From the IMG/VR virus record IMGVR_UViG_3300021431_000017: a DNA stretch of 20,000 bases. One strand, 5' to 3'. Shown piece by piece: positions 97 to 17,907 of the stretch. The notes beneath the pieces were generated by a model. It ran no database searches. It was given only the letters and a program-made list of their open reading frames with translations, and was not told the origin of the DNA. The DNA is from an uncultured virus (IMG/VR IMGVR_UViG_3300021431_000017). Lineage: Duplodnaviria > Heunggongvirae > Uroviricota > Caudoviricetes. Positions within the stretch are counted from its first letter, which is position 1. Each line of letters begins with the position of its first letter. Position numbers and translations under genes: made by a program.

Positions 97-621
97 ATGG
101 CTTTTAATCTTAGAGATGGTCAACGTGCTGAACGTAAACTTCTCATCACAGTGGCAGAGTGGACTGAGGGTAATACGCAAGTTCGTGAACTGCTTGGTAC
201 ACGTACTGAGGACTCCAGCATTGAGTACAATGCAGATATTGAAACCACAACTGATATTCGTGGTAACAACTATACAGACCTCAACCGGACTCAGCCGCAA
301 CAGGATTTTGACCCGCATCTGATTATGGGCGGTGCGAAACTTGCTGAAAAACTGAATGATATTCGGCGTAGAAATGCACTTAGTGAACTTGACCAGTTTA
401 CTTGCTATATCATCACTGCGTTTAAGGGTGATTCTGAAAACGGTTATGAGGCTGAAAAGCACGTTCACTGCACAATTACCTATAACAGCATCGGCGGTGA
501 TGTAAACGTTAATTTCCCGATTTCTGTCTACTTCAGTAACAACATTACTACAGGTAAAGTAGATAAGATTGCGGATGACTTTACGTTCACACCTGACGGT
601 GCAACCACTACAACAGAGTAG
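97..621 (+). CDS. major tail (tube) protein
   Basis: 174 aa with RBS AAGGAGG, acidic and beta-rich. Canonical position before the two chaperones and the tape measure gene. Confidence 0.75.
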   Translation: MAFNLRDGQRAERKLLITVAEWTEGNTQVRELLGTRTEDSSIEYNADIETTTDIRGNNYTDLNRTQPQQDFDPHLIMGGAKLAEKLNDIRRRNALSELDQFTCYIITAFKGDSENGYEAEKHVHCTITYNSIGGDVNVNFPISVYFSNNITTGKVDKIADDFTFTPDGATTTTE

Positions 622-626
622 TAATC

Positions 627-701
627 AAGGGCTATGCAGATTCAAGTTCTGCTAGGTCCACCCTCTCTGGGCCTATCGTTTAAGTTGGTAAGACAGCCTT
701 T
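627..701 (+). ncRNA. circularly permuted tRNA-like structured RNA (T-arm, loop-closed acceptor stem, D-arm)
   Basis: Closing stem AAGGGC(627-632)/GCCTTT(696-701). T-arm GCAGA-TTCAAGT-TCTGC (636-652). 8-bp stem TAGGTCCA/TGGGCCTA with loop CCCTCTC (653-675). Linker TC. D-arm GTTT-AAGTTGGTA-AGAC (678-694). Confidence 0.7.
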
Positions 702-729
702 ATAATTATTCATGAGAGGAGAATAAATT

Positions 730-1218
730 ATGCCTAACGATTTGCTGAAACGTAACGAACCTGTTGTTGATATAGACTTATCAGCAACAGGTAAAAAGAC
801 ATTCATGGTTAAGTTAAAAGAGGGCGATATTCGACCGCTGGAACTTAATCCTTCTGACCTCATGTTCATCACTAGACTGAACAAACTGTATCCTGAACTT
901 CAGCGTAAGGCTGATGCCGCTATGGCAGAATTGGATATTGATGAGAATAAGTCTGCGGATGAAATTTTAGCAAAAGCTTCCGAGATTCTTACTCAAATTG
1001 ATTCTGATATGCGTGTTGCTATGGATGAACTGTTTGATACAAATGTATCGGAAGTATGTGCACCCACGGGTTCAATGTATGACCCGTTTAATGGTATGTT
1101 TAGATTTGAGCATATTATTAAAGCACTATCCTCACTTTATGAAAATAACATAAGTGCGGAAACATCTAAAACGATGGCAAAATTAAATAAGCACACTGCA
1201 AAGTATATTAAATCGTGA
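730..1218 (+). CDS. tail assembly chaperone
   Basis: 162 aa, acidic and helical, RBS AGGAG at 717-721. Sits between the major tail and Gp15-like genes. Confidence 0.7.
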   Translation: MPNDLLKRNEPVVDIDLSATGKKTFMVKLKEGDIRPLELNPSDLMFITRLNKLYPELQRKADAAMAELDIDENKSADEILAKASEILTQIDSDMRVAMDELFDTNVSEVCAPTGSMYDPFNGMFRFEHIIKALSSLYENNISAETSKTMAKLNKHTAKYIKS

Positions 1219-1814
1219 TGGATAAGTACAGTATTCCGACTGAAGTTAATGTCAACGGAAAGATATTCAAAATAAGAAACAAGGGCGATTATCGGGTTAT
1301 GCTTGATTGTTTCGCCGTATTAGATGACCCAGAGTTAGATAAACAAGAAAAACTACTTGGTTGTTTAATTATATTTTATGAGAATATCGTTAGTTTAAAT
1401 GATGTTGAACAATTAACAAGAGAGGAGTTGGAAAGTGCTGTATCTGAAATGTATACATTCTTTAACTGCGGAAATAACGAGAGTTCTGGTCCCAAGCATA
1501 ATTATAAGTTAATTGATTGGGATAAGGACTCTCAATTAATTTGTAGTGCAGTTAATAAGGTTGCAAATACAGAGATACGAGCAGTACCATATCTTCACTG
1601 GTGGACATTTATGGGATATTATTCTTCCGTAGGGGAAAGTGTGCTGTCTACAGTTATTGGTATTCGTGATAAAATAGTATCGAATAAAAAACTGGAGAAG
1701 TGGGAGAATAAATTTAGAAACGAAAATCCACAATACTTTACTTGGAATATGCGCACTGCTGAGCAGATTGCGGATGATGAATATGTAAAGAGTTTGTGGA
1801 ATAGCGGAAAGTAG
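1218..1814 (+). CDS. Gp15-family (A118-like) tail assembly chaperone
   Basis: Contains D..LI.SA and YLHWWTFMGY, typical of the phage Gp15 family. Start is coupled to the upstream stop (TGATG); an alternative GTG lies at 1215. Confidence 0.75.
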   Translation: MDKYSIPTEVNVNGKIFKIRNKGDYRVMLDCFAVLDDPELDKQEKLLGCLIIFYENIVSLNDVEQLTREELESAVSEMYTFFNCGNNESSGPKHNYKLIDWDKDSQLICSAVNKVANTEIRAVPYLHWWTFMGYYSSVGESVLSTVIGIRDKIVSNKKLEKWENKFRNENPQYFTWNMRTAEQIADDEYVKSLWNSGK

Positions 1815-1822
1815 GTGACTTT

Positions 1823-4800
1823 ATGGCAGAAGATGCAGTTGTTATACCCGTATCACTTGAACCTGACATGCAATCTACCTTAAAGGCTGGCGCACAGTTA
1901 AGCAAGGAACTTTCTGATGCAATAAATGAATATGCCGATGTAGATATTTCAGATAAGTTACGAAAAAACCTTATTCAGGCTCAAAAATTTGAATCTCAAT
2001 TAACTAAGGTTAATAGTAAAATAGTGGAACTTGCATCAACTTCTGAAAATTTAATTCCTACAGATACTTATCAATCTGCTTGGGATAGTATGGTTAAATA
2101 CCGAGAGGAAGCAAACAAAATAACCGCTGAATTAGAAAAATTAAAACAGAAACAAGAAGAATTAAGTAGGCGAGATTCCACAATGCTTACTAATTATGCT
2201 AAAAGGAATAACATTTCTAATCGTGGTGAAGCAAGAGAAAAACTATTCGCTGAAAATAGTACGTATTATCGATTACAACAATCCATTAAAGACACAACCG
2301 CACAAGAAAATGCGCTTAGAGATTCACAAGAACGTGTAAATGCCGAACTTGAACGTTATAGAAATTTAGTAAATGAGATTCAAAATAACGGAACAGCATT
2401 TATTAAAGTTGGCGATACTGATGCGTATTACACATCATTAACGGATAATTTAGCAAAGTCGGCTGAACTTACTCAAAAACTTCAAATGTCATTGGGTGCT
2501 GTAGCGCATGAAGGCGGAGAAAATGTACAGAAGATAATTTCTCCTATTGCACGATTAGGCACTATTGCATCTATAACGGGTGGTAAAATTGCCACATTAG
2601 CAAAAAATTTACTGATGATGGCTAAGTCTGCTATTGCTGGCGGTATTAGACGATTAGCGTCTTCATTTAGAGGACTTGGTAAAGATTCTGAAAACTCCGG
2701 TGATTCGTTTAAAAAGGCGATAAAGTTATTCATTAAATATGGATTTGGTGTTCGTAGTTTCTTCTTCTTGTTCCGAAAAATTCGGTCTGCTATTGCAGAT
2801 AGTTTGAAAACATTGAAGGATGCGAGTTTTGGTGATGTTGGAGCATCATTAAATGCCCTGTCAACGTCTCTGCAATATTTAAAGGATAGTTGGGCGGCGG
2901 CATTTGCACCGATTATTACATTTGTAACTCCGGTGCTGACGAGATTAATGGATGCTTTCTCTGGTATTATGAATACGATTGGAGCATTCATCGCACTGCT
3001 TACAGGTAAATCGTTCTTTGTTAAAGCAGTAAAAGGAACCGGTGCGTTAGCAGATAAAACTAAAGCAGGTGCTGAAGCGCAAAAAGAATGGAACAATGAA
3101 CTGTACTCTTTTGATGAACTTAACAGACAACAAGACCAAGATGATAAGAATAAAGATTCAGGAAGTGGTAGCGGTGGAGGACTTAACTTTGAAGAGTCTC
3201 CGATTAGCGGAACATTATCTGAGTGGCTTCAAAATTGGGGAGAACGTCTTAAAGAGGCTTGGCAAAATAGTGAATTCTATAAGTTTGGAGAAATCGTTTC
3301 TGAAGGCTTAAATAAGGCTGTCGATGCTATTGATAACTGGATTGATAACACGCTTCAACCGTTTGCAGTTACGTGGTCAAAGAACATTGCGACAATCTTA
3401 AACGGTGTGGTTGCAGGATTGGATTGGGCACGTCTTGGAGATATGCTTGCGTCCGGTCTTAACATTATCCCTGCTGTCATTAATACGTTTATGGATACGT
3501 TTGACTTTAGTGTATTTGGTCAGCGTCTTGGTGAAGGGATTAAATCTTTTGTAGATGTTGTTGATTGGGAAGGTATTGGAAAATTATTTTCTAATAAACT
3601 GCGCCGATTAATCGAAATATTTCACGGCATTGTTAATACTCCGGGACTTTGGGAAAGTATTGGAAATGCAATTTCCTCAGCAATCACGGGATGGTTCTTC
3701 AACATTGATTGGCAATTAGCCGGTGAAACACTTGCTACCGGATTTAACGGGCTTGTAACATCTGTACACATAGCAATTCAAAATATTCCGTGGTTTACAA
3801 TGGCTGAAACCTTTGTCGCTGGTTTGAATACGCTGGTTACTGATATTGATTGGGCAGAATTTGGGCGTACTGTTAGTGATGCTCTTGTTGACGCTCTTGG
3901 CATGATTGTACTAGCACTCGCTGAATTTGATTGGCAGGGACTCGGTGAAGCAATCGGAGAATTTATTAGTAATATTGATTGGGGCAAAGTTGCGTTACTT
4001 GCAGTCATGGGTTTAATGGCACTTGCCAGCGGTCTATTTGAAGCATTAATTAGCGCATTGGAGTCAGTTTTTGAAAATATTGGTGATAAATTTGCTGAAT
4101 TTGGAGATGATGGCATAGCAGGATTCTTTAAAGGAATTGCAGATGCGTTAAAGAATTTAAAAAATTGGGTTCAAGAAAACATGATTGACCCATTAGTCAA
4201 TGCAGTAAAAGACCTACTTGGAATTCATTCGCCATCAAAAGTATTTTCTGAAATTGGTACAAATTTAGTCGATGGATTATTTGAAGGTATTAAAAATACA
4301 TGGTCTAAAATTACAGGATTCTTTGACCAGTCACTTGGTCCGTTAGTTAGTAAAATTCAAACAGCGTGGGATGATTTAAAAACTAAAACAGGTACGACTT
4401 GGAATAACATTAAAACTGCGGTTTCCAATACTTGGACAAATACAAAAAACAAACTGTTTACTACGACAGGAAATATCAAAACTGATGTTACTAATGCGTG
4501 GAATAATCTTAAAACCACAACTACCACATCGTGGAATAATATAAAAACTACTGTTACTAATTCCTGGAAAAATCTGAAAACAAATTTACGGTCAGTAAGT
4601 TTCAGTGATATTGGTAGAAATTTAGTAGATGGTATTAAGAACGGTGTCAGCGGTGCTTGGGATTCTTTGGTAAGTAGTGTAAACAGACTGTGCGGTTCAT
4701 TGGTAGACAGAGTTAGGGGAATGTTTCAAATTCATTCGCCATCAAAAGTATTTGCTGAAATTGGTGAAAACTTAGCATTAGGTCTTGCTGAAGGTATTAC

Positions 4801-5236
4801 AGATGAATCTAGCACACCGATTAAAGCCGCTGAGAATATGGCAGAGAGTGTTGGTGATTTAGATACCGCAATTACTGATGTGCCTGATGCATTAGACTCT
4901 GTTCTTGAAAAGTTAAATCAGATTGCCGATAGATTTACTACTATTACCAATGCTTTGCTGGGTGTATCGAATATGCCTATTCCGGCTGTAGCATCCGGAA
5001 GAGTTGTTCCTAGTGGAGTTTTTGCTTCAGGTGGTGATTCTGCTACTGTTGCAACAACTATTGCTGATGCTATTGTTAATGCATTTGATTCCCAAGGAAT
5101 CTCGTCTACATCTAACACACCGATGACTGCTCCAGTAATTAAAGTTTATATTAGAGGAAAAGAAGTGTTTGATGCTGTCGTAGATGAGAATAATTCTGCT
5201 ATAATGAGAACAGGGATAAGCCCCTTAATGAGATGA
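1823..5236 (+). CDS. tail tape measure protein
   Basis: 1137 aa with N-terminal coiled coil, Ala/Gly-rich amphipathic helices, repeated (I)DW..(L/I)G units, 11-residue W-spaced repeats (AWDDLKT, TWNNIKT) and two IHSPSKVF motifs. Confidence 0.93.
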   Translation: MAEDAVVIPVSLEPDMQSTLKAGAQLSKELSDAINEYADVDISDKLRKNLIQAQKFESQLTKVNSKIVELASTSENLIPTDTYQSAWDSMVKYREEANKITAELEKLKQKQEELSRRDSTMLTNYAKRNNISNRGEAREKLFAENSTYYRLQQSIKDTTAQENALRDSQERVNAELERYRNLVNEIQNNGTAFIKVGDTDAYYTSLTDNLAKSAELTQKLQMSLGAVAHEGGENVQKIISPIARLGTIASITGGKIATLAKNLLMMAKSAIAGGIRRLASSFRGLGKDSENSGDSFKKAIKLFIKYGFGVRSFFFLFRKIRSAIADSLKTLKDASFGDVGASLNALSTSLQYLKDSWAAAFAPIITFVTPVLTRLMDAFSGIMNTIGAFIALLTGKSFFVKAVKGTGALADKTKAGAEAQKEWNNELYSFDELNRQQDQDDKNKDSGSGSGGGLNFEESPISGTLSEWLQNWGERLKEAWQNSEFYKFGEIVSEGLNKAVDAIDNWIDNTLQPFAVTWSKNIATILNGVVAGLDWARLGDMLASGLNIIPAVINTFMDTFDFSVFGQRLGEGIKSFVDVVDWEGIGKLFSNKLRRLIEIFHGIVNTPGLWESIGNAISSAITGWFFNIDWQLAGETLATGFNGLVTSVHIAIQNIPWFTMAETFVAGLNTLVTDIDWAEFGRTVSDALVDALGMIVLALAEFDWQGLGEAIGEFISNIDWGKVALLAVMGLMALASGLFEALISALESVFENIGDKFAEFGDDGIAGFFKGIADALKNLKNWVQENMIDPLVNAVKDLLGIHSPSKVFSEIGTNLVDGLFEGIKNTWSKITGFFDQSLGPLVSKIQTAWDDLKTKTGTTWNNIKTAVSNTWTNTKNKLFTTTGNIKTDVTNAWNNLKTTTTTSWNNIKTTVTNSWKNLKTNLRSVSFSDIGRNLVDGIKNGVSGAWDSLVSSVNRLCGSLVDRVRGMFQIHSPSKVFAEIGENLALGLAEGITDESSTPIKAAENMAESVGDLDTAITDVPDALDSVLEKLNQIADRFTTITNALLGVSNMPIPAVASGRVVPSGVFASGGDSATVATTIADAIVNAFDSQGISSTSNTPMTAPVIKVYIRGKEVFDAVVDENNSAIMRTGISPLMR
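4222..4765 (+). repeat. 37-bp direct repeat pair inside the tape measure gene
   Basis: AATTCATTCGCCATCAAAAGTATTT(T/G)CTGAAATTGGT at 4222-4258 and 4729-4765. 36/37 identical, 507 bp apart (in frame). Confidence 0.9.
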
Positions 5237-13682: not shown

Positions 13683-13785
13683 CTTCGGTGGCGGAATAGG
13701 TAGACGCTAAAGTTAGATAGATAATTCCTAAACTGGTTGGCGACAGATGCGAGTTATCATGCAGGGTGCAAATCCCTGCCCGAAG
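13683..13785 (+). ncRNA. tRNA-Leu-like element, copy 3 (no anticodon arm)
   Basis: Stem CTTCGG/CCGAAG. D-arm TG-GCG-GAATAGGTAGA-CGC. Long hairpin GATAATTC/GAGTTATC. T-arm GCAGGG-TGCAAAT-CCCTGC. 53-nt core. Confidence 0.75.
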
Positions 13786-13852
13786 AATTAGAAGGAAAAC
13801 TATAAACCCGTTTAAACTACGTAGAAAGTTTCCGTGACTGGTATTTAGTCTA

Positions 13853-13930: not shown

Positions 13931-13999
13931 TCCTGAATAGTTCAATGGTAGAACACATGACTATATCGTGATATGTGGGTTCAATTCCCACTTCAGGTG
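13931..13999 (+). tRNA. aberrant tRNA with a 5-nt anticodon loop (Asn/Gln-like body, undetermined identity)
   Basis: Acceptor TCCTGAA/TTCAGGT+G, D-arm GTTC/GAAC and T-arm GTGGG-TTCAATT-CCCAC are all intact. The anticodon arm is CATGA-CTATA-TCGTG. Confidence 0.7.
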
Positions 14000-14100
14000 C
14001 GCCGGATTGACCAACGTTGACGTCATTAAAACGTGGTGGGCGAGTGCTATCGTCAGCAGAGAAAATAGCATGTGGTTGTTGGTGCATCAACAACCAAAAC

Positions 14101-14175
14101 CCCCGTATATGCTTAACAGGTTAAAGGGTACCCCTTATAAGGGTAAGAGTGGTGGTTCGAGTCCACCTGCGGGGA
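14101..14175 (+). tRNA. tRNA-Ile (anticodon TAT)
   Basis: Acceptor CCCCGTA/TGCGGGG+A, anticodon arm TACCC-CTTATAA-GGGTA, T-arm GGTGG-TTCGAGT-CCACC. The D-arm is irregular (extra T, 3-bp stem). No encoded CCA. Confidence 0.8.
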
Positions 14176-14178
14176 CGC

Positions 14179-14251
14179 GCCGACTTAGCTCAATTGGTAG
14201 AGCAACTGCCTTGTAAGTAGTAAGTTAGGGGTTCAAGTCCTCTAGTCGGCA
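14179..14251 (+). tRNA. tRNA-Thr (anticodon TGT)
   Basis: Full cloverleaf: GCCGACT/AGTCGGC+A, GCTC/GAGC, ACTGC-CTTGTAA-GTAGT, AGGGG-TTCAAGT-CCTCT. Confidence 0.95.
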
Positions 14252-14252
14252 T

Positions 14253-14323
14253 TCCCGTGTAGTTCAACGGTAGAACAAGTGGCTTTGACCCACTCGATAC
14301 AAGTTCAACTCTTGTCACGGGTG
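14253..14323 (+). tRNA. tRNA-Gln (anticodon TTG)
   Basis: TCCCGTG/CACGGGT+G with a T1-T72 mismatch, GTTC/GAAC, AGTGG-CTTTGAC-CCACT, ACAAG-TTCAACT-CTTGT. Confidence 0.9.
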
Positions 14324-14394
14324 CTATTATATGTTATATTAAAAATGCCTTATCGAATCGGAACCCTTACTCAGGTTTTCGCCTCCATTTTTGG

Positions 14395-14604: not shown

Positions 14605-14988
14605 ATGTTCGTATATTACAACCCAAATCCACAGAACAAACTTGTGGGAGATTGTGTGATAAGAGCAATTTGCAAACTGACAGATAGGGATTGGGAAGAT
14701 GTTTATTTAGATATCGCACTTCAAGGTTTCATGATGCATGATATGCCAACAGCAAATCACGTTTGGGGTACGTATCTAAAAGAAAATCATTTTGTTCAGT
14801 CATTACTGCCCAATACTTGTCCTGACTGTTATACGGTAAAAGATTTCTGCGTAGACTTTCCAAAAGGTACTTATCTATTAGCGATAGGAAATCATGTAGT
14901 GGCAGTTCAAGACGGCAATTATTACGATGCTTGGGATAGTGGTGACGAATTACCTATCTTTTATTGGCAAAAGGAGGAAGTTAAATAA
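14605..14988 (+). CDS. hypothetical protein, putative papain-like Cys-His-Asp hydrolase
   Basis: 127 aa with RBS GAGGT. GDCVIRAI ... HVVAV.DG.YYD.WDSG spacing fits a minimal cysteine peptidase fold. Confidence 0.6.
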   Translation: MFVYYNPNPQNKLVGDCVIRAICKLTDRDWEDVYLDIALQGFMMHDMPTANHVWGTYLKENHFVQSLLPNTCPDCYTVKDFCVDFPKGTYLLAIGNHVVAVQDGNYYDAWDSGDELPIFYWQKEEVK

Positions 14989-15398
14989 TGCCAGCATATA
15001 ACAACTATTTTCCGGTCGGATATCAGTATTATCAACCACAGTTTCAACAGCCTATTCAACCTACTCAATCACCCAATGTGGGAAATACTGGACCTAATGG
15101 AATTATCTGGGTGCAAGGGGAGGCAGGTGCAAAGTCGTATCTTGTGGCTCCTAATACAACAGTGCAGTTATGGGATAGTGAATCACAGACTATCTATCTC
15201 AAATCAGCCGATGCAACAGGAATGCCATCTATTAAAACTTTAGACTATACAATTCGTGAACTCCCTAATTCAACCCCAACTGTAGTACAGACTGTTCAGC
15301 CTGATTTAAGTAAATACGTAACTTGGGATGAATTGGAAGAAAAATTAAATTCTATGAAGGCAAGACCGATGCAGAGAAAGGAACACAGAGATGAGTAA
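14988..15398 (+). CDS. hypothetical protein with Q/P/Y-rich N-terminus
   Basis: 136 aa with RBS AAGGAGG and TAATG coupling. Globular core WVQGEAGAKSYLVAPNTTVQLWDSE. Confidence 0.8.
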   Translation: MPAYNNYFPVGYQYYQPQFQQPIQPTQSPNVGNTGPNGIIWVQGEAGAKSYLVAPNTTVQLWDSESQTIYLKSADATGMPSIKTLDYTIRELPNSTPTVVQTVQPDLSKYVTWDELEEKLNSMKARPMQRKEHRDE

Positions 15399-15591
15399 TC
15401 CGCTATTCAATCAGTACGGAAATAATCAGTACAGTAATATGATTCAGCGTTTTAATCAGTTTAAGCAGACATTTCACGGTGACCCTAAACAACAAGTTCA
15501 GAATCTTTTGAACAGCGGTAAAGTGTCACAACAGCAATACAATCAAGCAGTTCAAATGGCTAATGCATTTCAGAAAATGCTAGGCAAATAG
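15391..15591 (+). CDS. small Q/N-rich hypothetical protein
   Basis: 66 aa with RBS AAGGA, overlapping the upstream gene end. Confidence 0.75.
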   Translation: MSNPLFNQYGNNQYSNMIQRFNQFKQTFHGDPKQQVQNLLNSGKVSQQQYNQAVQMANAFQKMLGK

Positions 15592-15647
15592 TTATATAAA
15601 TTCCAAGTGCGCATAGGAGTTTGTATATAGAAGAAAGGAAATAAATT

Positions 15648-16496
15648 ATGTCTTTAGAAGAAAGTGGAAACGGACTTGTTATGCCAGTAGCACCGATGTA
15701 CGGTGGGGCAGGTTCCGGTTTCGGAAATGGTTTCGGCGGTGACGGATGGTGGATTCTTCTGCTGTTCATTCTGCTCGGAAACGGCGCTTGGGGCAACGGC
15801 TTCGGCGGTGGATTTGGTGGCGGAGACCTTTATCCTTGGATGAATCAGTCAAATCAGATTAATGGTGGATTCCGTGACCAGATGATTAACTCTAACATCG
15901 ATTCTATTCAGAATGGTGTAAACAGCATTCAGACACAGTTGTGTAACGGTTTTGCCGGTGTAAATCAGACTGTACAGAATGGTTTTGCACAGGCTGAAAT
16001 TGCTGACAATGCACGTCAGATGGCTAACATGCAACAGGCCTTTGCAAATCAGACAGCAATGTCCCAGGGTTTCAACGCTCTCGGAACTCAGTTTGCGGAT
16101 TGTTGCTGTGAAAATCGCCTTGCTAGTGCTGACCTCAAATACACAATCGCTACAGAAAACTGTGCTGACCGTGCGGCGATTTCTGATGGTATTCGTGACG
16201 TTATTGAAAACTGCAACCGCAACAATCAGCGTATTCTTGACCAACTCTGTGCTGACAAGATTGATGCTAAGAATGAGAAGATTGCAGACCTTGAACGTCA
16301 ACTTACAATGGCTAATCTTGCGGCTTCGCAGACTGCTCAGACCGCACAGATTCGTGCAGGACAGGTTGCAGAGATTGACGCTATGTACAATCGTCTGAAG
16401 GATTGCCCTGTGCCGACAATGCCGGTATACGGTCAGACACCTATCTTTACTTGCCCGAACAATAACTGCGGATGCGGTTGTAGCGGTCAGTTCTGA
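15648..16496 (+). CDS. Gly-rich, single hydrophobic segment, coiled-coil, Cys-cluster protein of unknown function
   Basis: 282 aa with RBS AAAGGA. WWILLLFILLG flanked by GFGGG repeats, long heptad region, DCCCE and C-terminal CGCGC. Confidence 0.85.
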   Translation: MSLEESGNGLVMPVAPMYGGAGSGFGNGFGGDGWWILLLFILLGNGAWGNGFGGGFGGGDLYPWMNQSNQINGGFRDQMINSNIDSIQNGVNSIQTQLCNGFAGVNQTVQNGFAQAEIADNARQMANMQQAFANQTAMSQGFNALGTQFADCCCENRLASADLKYTIATENCADRAAISDGIRDVIENCNRNNQRILDQLCADKIDAKNEKIADLERQLTMANLAASQTAQTAQIRAGQVAEIDAMYNRLKDCPVPTMPVYGQTPIFTCPNNNCGCGCSGQF

Positions 16497-16507
16497 GGTA
16501 CATAATC

Positions 16508-16963
16508 ATGGCAGAATATACTTATAATCCGATTCAATTAGTGGAACCTAATCAGAATGTTATTCTGAATAATAACATTCCGTGTAACAGAGGTTATGTT
16601 CTGCATCGTGAAGAATCCGGAATTGTTACTCTCCGTGGTATTGTCAATAACCCTCAGTGTTGTTTCGCACGTTATCAGGTTACATTCAACGGCAACATCG
16701 CTGTTCCAGAGGATGGAACTGTCGGTCCGATTGCGGTAGCGTTGGCTATTGATGGTGAACCTATTCAGACCAGTCGTGCTATCGTAACACCTGCGGCTGT
16801 AGATGAGTACTTTAATGTAACATCTACCGCATTTGTAACAGTCCCAAGAGGTTGTTGCTTTAATGTAGCCGTTGAAAATGTATCGTTTGGTGCAACTGCG
16901 GCAGACCCTGCGACAGCAATTAACGTGCAGAATGCAAACCTTACAGTTCAGCGAGTGGCGTAA
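16508..16963 (+). CDS. beta-sandwich protein (possibly BclA C-terminal/C1q-like)
   Basis: 151 aa with RBS GAGGT. Alternating beta-strand pattern (YQVTFNGNI, IAVALAIDGEPI, NANLTVQRVA) and two CC pairs. Confidence 0.7.
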   Translation: MAEYTYNPIQLVEPNQNVILNNNIPCNRGYVLHREESGIVTLRGIVNNPQCCFARYQVTFNGNIAVPEDGTVGPIAVALAIDGEPIQTSRAIVTPAAVDEYFNVTSTAFVTVPRGCCFNVAVENVSFGATAADPATAINVQNANLTVQRVA

Positions 16964-16981
16964 TAGAAGGGAGATATTATA

Positions 16982-17551
16982 ATGTCGAAAAGAACTTATG
17001 AGGAACTTCGTGATATGTTACGCCATGAACTTGACGTACTCACGAAAAAGGGTGAGATTACAAAAGATAATCTCGACAATTTCAACAAACTGACTAACAC
17101 TCTGTGGAAAGTCGAAGAATTGATGCAGTCTGAGGGTTCATCTAATTCAGATGGTCAAAGCATGAACTATTCCAGAATGATGCGATACCCAGGTTACAAT
17201 TCTATGACACAAGGTAACAGTAATGAAACAGGCTATAGTCAAGGCTCATATGATACAGGAATGTCTAACAGAGATTCTTACAATGATGGATACTCACGGG
17301 ACGGGAATTATGCCAGTCGAGGGTCATATGCAAGAACCGGACGAGACGGTGATGGTGATGGGCGATATAGCGAAAACGAAGGTAGTTATCGTAGGGGACG
17401 TGATTCGTACAGAGGATACAACCGTGATGGGTACAGCAGACACACTGCGAAAGAACGCATGATTGAAAAACTTGAAGGTATGGCTGATAAAGCAACGTCT
17501 GAAAAAGACCGCATGGCCATCATGGATTGTATTGAAGAGTTAGAAAAGTAA
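16982..17551 (+). CDS. hypothetical protein with S/Y/R/G/D low-complexity centre
   Basis: 189 aa with RBS AAGGGAG. Helical ends flank repeated (G)(S)Y(S)R units and RDGDGDGRYS. Confidence 0.8.
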   Translation: MSKRTYEELRDMLRHELDVLTKKGEITKDNLDNFNKLTNTLWKVEELMQSEGSSNSDGQSMNYSRMMRYPGYNSMTQGNSNETGYSQGSYDTGMSNRDSYNDGYSRDGNYASRGSYARTGRDGDGDGRYSENEGSYRRGRDSYRGYNRDGYSRHTAKERMIEKLEGMADKATSEKDRMAIMDCIEELEK

Positions 17552-17907
17552 TGGACATTAAATTGATTGAACGAACAATAAATGAGTTGGAAAATTCAGA
17601 AACAAATTTTGCGAATTGTGCGGATTTGGCTTATCTGTACATCGTCAGAAGTTTTTATCAACCTAATGAAACGGATGACGTTGAGCGTGAATTGTCAGAT
17701 ATAACTCCAAGTTATAAGATATATCGAAACATAAAACGAAATTATCAGTTGGGCGTGACTAACGAAGATGAAGTTTTATTGGCAATGAGTCAAGTGTGCA
17801 GAGAGATATATGAATTTATAATGACTATATATAGTAGTACAAACACTGCTGAGGAACGTAAATTATTAAGTAGGGCAATCAATAAAGCATGTCAGGAAAT
17901 GCGCTGA
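17551..17907 (+). CDS. hypothetical helical protein
   Basis: 118 aa, TAATG-coupled to the upstream gene. Its stop lies within the terminator. Confidence 0.75.
   Translation: MDIKLIERTINELENSETNFANCADLAYLYIVRSFYQPNETDDVERELSDITPSYKIYRNIKRNYQLGVTNEDEVLLAMSQVCREIYEFIMTIYSSTNTAEERKLLSRAINKACQEMR

Follow-up and report, generated by a model that had tools for sequence, protein, structure and literature searches.

A circularly permuted tRNA-like element between the tail tube and tail chaperone genes of an uncultured phage

The window, by which we mean the whole 20,000-nucleotide stretch of viral DNA that was analysed, carries a permuted tRNA-like structure in the gap between its major tail (tube) gene and its tail assembly chaperone gene, and this structure is genuine. 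The most likely reading is that one gut-phage lineage acquired, in this gap, a tRNA-Ala derivative that is circularly permuted and lacks an anticodon. As to its role, we lean, tentatively, to an RNase P site where the tube mRNA would be parted from the chaperone mRNA, the tube message would receive a cap, and a linker complementary to the chaperone ribosome binding site (RBS) would be lost. The known role of permuted tRNA mimics is to partner Ro60; one with alanine identity within an operon of protein genes would put them to a new use. If the processing reading is true, host tRNA enzymes would set virion protein ratios, possibly with an aminoacylated mRNA end in bacteria. In the literature on permuted tRNAs, YrlA, phage RNase P sites and tail chaperones (most subscription journals lie outside the coverage), we find no published account of a permuted tRNA-like element in a phage tail mRNA.

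The genes around the element, and the RBS in front of the chaperone gene, are as follows.

97..621, plus strand: major tail (tube) protein gene, 174 aa, phrog_3099; its AF2 model matches tail-tube folds with weak E-values
714..721, plus strand: purine-rich chaperone RBS, recognised from its sequence; duplex with the acceptor loop of -10.9 kcal/mol
730..1218, plus strand: tail assembly chaperone gene, 162 aa; BFVD match to tail assembly chaperones at E 1e-8
1215..1814, plus strand: second chaperone gene, of the Gp15 type; Pfam Phage_Gp15 at E 4e-17
1823..5236, plus strand: tape measure protein gene (PHROGs)

The labels of major tail and chaperone that these genes had been given in an earlier note are both supported, by the tail-tube fold (at weak E-values) and by the chaperone match. 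For the model of the tube protein (97-621), a Foldseek search of the PDB returns zero matches at E<=0.001; the best E-value is 2e-3, and the tail tube of phage NF5 is matched with a probability of 1.0. The gap between the two genes (621/730) measures 108 nt, and the flanks of the element within it are AU-rich. Read-through from the tube into the chaperone is ruled out by a double stop at 619-624 and by a frame change between alleles, while a terminator or an internal promoter at the element is rejected since neither consensus site is present. The element itself consists of the following parts.

627..633, plus strand: basal stem, 5' strand (the former anticodon-stem 3' strand); other alleles pair at 629-633 only
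632..635, plus strand: CTAT at the variable region, the YUAY motif of YrlA; T635 is U48, the Levitt partner
636..652, plus strand: T arm, with stem 636-640/648-652 (5 bp) and loop 641-647; A53-U61 replaces the usual G53-C61
653..662, plus strand: acceptor 3' strand and end; U70 is 657, A73 is 660, C74-C75 are 661-662 and position 76 is C
662..667, plus strand: anti-RBS linker in the acceptor loop, complementary to 714-719
668..669, plus strand: predicted RNase P cut, between -1 and G1, by analogy with M. smegmatis YrlA
669..675, plus strand: acceptor 5' strand, with G1 G2 G3 and G3·U70
676..694, plus strand: U8, C9 and the complete D arm, carrying A14, A15, G18, G19 and A21; stem 678-681/691-694 (4 bp), loop 682-690
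695..701, plus strand: basal stem, 3' strand; the whole stem has 7 bp including one G·U

The element at 627-701 is thus a tRNA with its 3' half first: T arm, 7-bp acceptor stem, A-C-C, linker and D arm. A basal stem closes it in place of the anticodon arm, and there is no anticodon loop. In tRNA terms, the order along the gap is the 3' strand of the anticodon stem, a short variable region, the T arm, the acceptor 3' strand and A73-C74-C75-C, followed by the linker, G1 at 669, the acceptor 5' strand, U8-C9, the D arm and the 5' strand of the anticodon stem. The earlier note had described such a permuted cloverleaf, with a T/acceptor/D topology like that of YrlA; all of its elements lie where they had been placed, and the likeness extends to the sealed acceptor. 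The note had also drawn an acceptor-like stem of 8 bp. There is pairing of that length (653-660/668-675, with loop 661-667) if A660-T668 is counted, but the stem is better taken as a 7-bp acceptor with discriminator A73 and C74-C75, and with a G3·U70 that, like A73, had been overlooked as a mark of alanine. This arrangement points to RNase P, to CCA addition and to alanine identity.

On 20 Mb of simulated DNA (order-3 Markov, modelled on the window), a permuted-cloverleaf scanner returns 0 strict and 14 loose matches. When the two halves are re-ordered in silico, ARAGORN calls a tRNA with a score of 100.2, just above its default threshold; a re-ordering one base shorter passes the relaxed threshold only. 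The anticodon called varies with the join chosen, the flanks differ among alleles, and a decoding permuted tRNA is ruled out since no anticodon is recoverable from the two ends. The tertiary and elbow bases are all kept (U8, A14, A15:U48, G18, G19, A21, U54, U55, C56, A58). Pair 53-61 is A-U in the element; among 283 scored tRNAs it is A-T in 3 and G-C in 275. A YUAY of the CTAT type at the variable region is present too in some phage tRNA-Ala and ordinary tRNAs. The folding energy by itself is not significant (z -1.3 to -1.8), and the D and basal stems have low probabilities in ViennaRNA without tertiary contacts, of which, as of pseudoknots, the program takes no account.

G3·U70 is the main alanine determinant (PMC6451123). 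In a comparison set enriched by the search patterns, both it and A73 are found in 20 of 21 Ala tRNAs and in 5 of 275 others. Phage tRNA-Ala(UGC) genes that share the element's variable region and the T-C-G start of its D arm are among the closest intact look-alikes in a pattern-biased set, where a tRNA-Tyr ties for first place by score. The element probably originated from a tandem pair of tRNA genes, and a dimeric-tRNA origin of this kind is the published model for the YrlA topology (10.1101/312249). Such an origin would need a duplicate of one tRNA, because, of 176 natural tandem-tRNA junctions, just 1 produces the full 7/7 cross-acceptor.

How widely is the element distributed? Among the best 80 of 97 tube-gene loci on viral contigs, it is present in L007 and L008 only (98-100% identical to the window) and absent in 78, so that conservation in homologous loci, by which the earlier note had proposed to judge its idea, turns out mostly negative. 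None of 7 tube loci in bacterial genomes has it either; six of these are in Bacillota bins and possibly mis-binned. Most relatives manage without an element, because 78 of 80 tube loci lack one and the tube-chaperone spacer has a median of 25 nt among 73 distinct relatives. In the loci compared, the element is lineage-specific. No second copy is found in 1.49 Mb from 26 related records, some of them covered partly, and a covariance-model search of the related records gives a next-best score of 27 bits against 87 for the training copies. The related records and the viral and metagenome pattern scans hold no diverged homologue, and INPHARED phages give zero DNA matches and three tube matches at about 30% only. 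The sole matches of one viral pattern scan are the two contigs of the own lineage. Among the matches listed in another (29 loci), most are tRNA-array junctions, joined by the two own copies and by L100 and L092, which are described below; further viral pattern scans (30 loci; 3 loci) give no additional permuted copy. The metagenome scan (26 loci) contains one identical copy, the others being intact tRNAs and chance matches. With a 5-sequence covariance model, 126 of 151 genomes of G030's family are matched, and the best 30 of these 126 matches are 29 tandem-tRNA junctions and one YrlA-like RNA. A scanner match at L261 falls within a coding frame, and we regard it as a chance match.

Runs from 10 studies contain the window stretch, whole or in part, and a second flank allele is seen in three of the 4 runs examined. 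The allele changes in the core stems keep pairing (629 G·U/A-U, 654 A-U/G·U), those at 627-628 lose the two terminal pairs of the basal stem, and the loop and RBS are invariant among the alleles seen. The window and L254 differ by 15 substitutions plus 1 indel in 582-629, by 1 substitution in 630-729 and by 3 in the chaperone gene (489 nt). The low variation in 630-729 is no sign of selection, because that of the chaperone gene is equally low. The divergent block at 582-629 stops exactly at the element's edge, likely a recombination edge, and it hints that both lineages carried the element.

These observations bear on a rival account, a near-neutral relic: an anticodon-to-anticodon fragment of a duplicated tRNA gene pair that landed in an AT-rich spacer and was tolerated. 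The relic would be consistent with confinement to one lineage, with the lack of a second copy in the related records and in the viral and metagenome scans, with a linker length that fits natural tandem spacers, with the published dimeric-tRNA model (10.1101/312249) and with conservation that is not above that of the next gene. We give it some weight but hold it unlikely: the pattern scans contain no near-identical intact source tRNA, none of the four stems or tertiary positions is damaged and pair 53-61 has changed on both sides, the C-rich anti-RBS linker is unparalleled among 176 linkers, and the element is common to alleles whose tube 3' ends differ at 15/48 sites up to its edge, which suggests persistence.

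The topology raises the question of whether this is a genuine Y RNA with a Ro60 protein as its partner. The YrlA topology and YUAY are shared, and only about 25 kb of the genome was examined. The cmscan comparison with YrlA models proposed earlier is negative, however: an Rfam search including RF02553 gives no YrlA match at E<=10 and nothing above noise at the element, where the positive control, L100, scores 43.5 bits (E 3e-7) on RF02553. The Ro60-binding motif GNCGAA(N)G is absent in 561-640 and in the L008 allele, tube coding sequence lying directly upstream, and the long stem is missing as well. For a YrlA, a Ro60 gene would be expected within about 4 kb. The earlier note saw no Ro60 gene in the window, which holds for the 14 window proteins scanned for TROVE (Ro60), and the wider search finds none in 3 fragments of the own lineage or in 30 related records (0/30; 18 of them at least 90% complete). 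A true Y RNA is therefore largely refuted and scarcely credible. Judged from its sequence, the element resembles the tRNA-like head of YrlA and yet is not a YrlA member. Four weak YrlA matches in relatives were rejected, their sites being ordinary tRNAs or partial arms. The control L100 (669-785, minus strand) is a YrlA-like RNA with CCA and G3·U70 that stands just before a Ro60-like gene; it is from the start of this downstream gene, judged by eye, that we take it to resemble Ro60.

Compared with YrlA (RF02553), and especially that of M. smegmatis, the element has in common the T-acceptor-D order, the sealed acceptor, the missing anticodon loop, YUAY and the elbow bases. The 7-bp acceptor of M. 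smegmatis YrlA is cleaved by RNase P and its end is completed by the CCA enzyme (PMC4201824; 10.1101/312249), and the element has the same kind of acceptor. It differs in having no Ro60-binding motif or stem, no Ro60 gene and no Rfam match, in having U8-C9 where YrlA has UA, and in lying inside a structural-gene mRNA, with alanine marks and a loop complementary to the next RBS. With two-piece tmRNA (RF04321) it shares an upstream acceptor 3' piece, a linker and a 5' piece followed by a reading frame, as well as G3·U70 and A73. tmRNA is not known to have a D stem, whereas the element has a full 4-bp D stem, no tag frame and no tmRNA call by Rfam or ARAGORN, and the frame that follows it belongs to an ordinary gene that has an RBS to itself; the D stem and the lack of either call rule out a two-piece tmRNA. 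The permuted tRNA genes of algae and Thermofilum also place the 3' half first, and the 8-nt linker is within the 7-74 nt of C. merolae (PMC3978253), but the element has no anticodon loop to rebuild, belongs to a bacterial phage and is not a stand-alone gene. With RNase P sites in mRNAs and phage RNAs, and with the tRNA-like 3' processing elements of mammalian lncRNAs, it shares a tRNA-like fold, which serves there for the cutting of a longer transcript (PMC11143913; 10.1101/312249); it would differ in that, in the permuted layout, the upstream message would carry the CCA end and the two pieces would stay paired.

Starting from what is observed, namely the fold, the elbow bases, the 7-bp acceptor with A-C-C, the alanine marks and the position, we infer the following course. 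The cloverleaf would fold within the transcript, and RNase P would cut some fraction of the transcripts at 668/669. Trimming would leave a 3' tail that ends in C-C, which would then be made up to CCA in the manner of M. smegmatis YrlA. The tube message would then end in a protective tRNA-like cap, possibly alanylated, and the chaperone/tape-measure part would decay separately. Trimming would take away the linker pairing with the chaperone RBS, and cutting may also unmask the RBS, the net outcome being that the element would set tube versus chaperone output. A processing or stability element had been named in the earlier note as an alternative; it has become our leading, still tentative, reading, with a cleavage that is predicted.

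The support for the processing reading comes, by analogy, from several precedents. In M. smegmatis YrlA the 7-bp acceptor decides RNase P cleavage, and CA is then gained (PMC4201824). C74 and C75 pair with RNase P RNA (PMC1874595), the enzyme cleaves mRNAs and phage RNAs too (PMC11143913), and the intervening loops of algal permuted tRNAs, 7-74 nt long, are removed (PMC3978253). The element has the features of an RNase P substrate, a 7-bp acceptor stacked on a T arm and RCC at 73-75. The four tRNA genes in the window encode no CCA, so the host must add it and host CCA addition is available. In a two-piece model, the unpaired share of the 5' part of the RBS rises from about 0.6 to 0.96 in the window allele; in the L008 allele, the RBS is already open in the model. 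Further support is given by the intact elbow and Levitt positions with the two-sided A53-U61 change, by the alanine marks and the tRNA-Ala look-alikes, by the rarity of a full cross-acceptor among natural tandem junctions, by the allele changes that keep pairing, by the lack of a promoter or terminator consensus and by the covarying hairpin of a separate clade in the same gap. In this clade of 8 (L042, L052, L053, L054, L074, L077, L084, L188; the tree is a quick version with 12 duplicate rows omitted), a different, long hairpin lies directly after the tube stop codon and 10 of its 18 pairs are compensatory, so that the tube-chaperone junction is occupied twice by structured RNA. The clade hairpin may serve as a terminator, or else as an RNase III-type site; a T-rich sequence trails it, and some members have TGATATAAT just upstream.

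Several results count against the processing reading. Two contigs from RNA libraries, X3 with the whole stretch and X20 with 468-734, extend uncut across 668/669, although such contigs are blind to ends and may contain DNA, and X3 hardly differs from the window, of which it may be the source. Added to this are the 78 of 80 loci that lack the element, the pairs lost at 627-628, the favoured rival fold described below and the lack of covariation. The A660-T668 pairing, the 7-nt loop and A53-U61 may moreover slow RNase P.

Alternatively, the sealed loop may pair with the chaperone RBS, as a pseudoknot or in a nested fold, and lower chaperone translation without any cleavage. The complement between CCTCTC and GAGAGG pointed out in the earlier note is present: 662-667 and 714-719 form 6 Watson-Crick pairs (-10.9 kcal/mol) that overlap AGGAG at 717-721. 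Simulation with A-C-C as given puts the chance of a 6-bp match at about 0.5%, and none of 176 natural tRNA linkers attains 6 pairs. One unpaired base followed by six paired ones beside a stem fits the rule for H-type pseudoknot geometry. ViennaRNA favours a rival fold in the window allele (-28.6 vs -24.0 kcal/mol), in which the helix of loop and RBS takes the place of the acceptor stem, with a probability of about 0.59; the value is only 0.01 in the L008 allele, which argues against an uncut switch. The match is also post hoc; its C-C derives from tRNA ancestry and pairs with most RBSs, and the RBS regions of 3 of 63 relatives give at least 6 pairs with the window loop, thus equalling or bettering it. 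By the dimensions of RNA, the 12-14 nt linker that must span from the basal stem to the acceptor end would be near full stretch. There is no covariation, and the alanine marks are left unexplained. The uncut switch is accordingly rather improbable. In our judgement the match is real and unusual, but no more than suggestive. Of the cis-acting pseudoknot that the earlier note had inferred, the cis position and the complement stand; as the lead mechanism it gives way, having no covariation support and no diverged homologue in the searches made.

The two ideas can be combined in a processing-gated switch, in which the uncut sealed loop would hide the chaperone RBS, and RNase P and CCA repair would destroy the linker, free translation and leave an alanylated tube-mRNA cap still paired to the chaperone message. 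We hold this combination to be quite improbable. If true, the result would be a chargeable bacterial mRNA in two pieces, through which tail assembly is linked to the host's capacity to mature tRNAs.

The element could also act in trans. Decay of the late mRNA, an abundant one, at the AU-rich flanks might leave a stable 75-nt tRNA mimic as a decoy that binds host tRNA-handling or defence proteins, an idea in line with those flanks and with L092, where two permuted elements lie next to tRNA-like genes. No promoter, terminator or flanking tRNA is there for its release, the phage tRNA array at 13.9-14.3 kb is the usual place of such RNAs, and the RBS complement would be unnecessary, which makes the decoy improbable too. 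The pair at L092 (686-900, minus strand) consists of two tandem permuted tRNA-like RNAs, one with an encoded CCA and a Phe-like 5' half including the anticodon arm, the other with a weak YrlA match.

Elsewhere in the window, 13683-13790 holds a tRNA-Leu-like gene with an enlarged middle and no ARAGORN or Rfam call. Four tRNA genes follow at 13931-14324, two of them called Ile(TAT), an anticodon that is rare in bacteria; Ile(TAT) and Gln(TTG) recur in relatives. Past this array lies a co-oriented gene block (14605-17907; phrog 3754, 16490, 20016) whose function is not assigned. In a genome of G030's family, L291 (G159:C278:2828-2900) is a sealed YrlA-like RNA, and two long frames near it are, as we take them by eye, presumably transposases.
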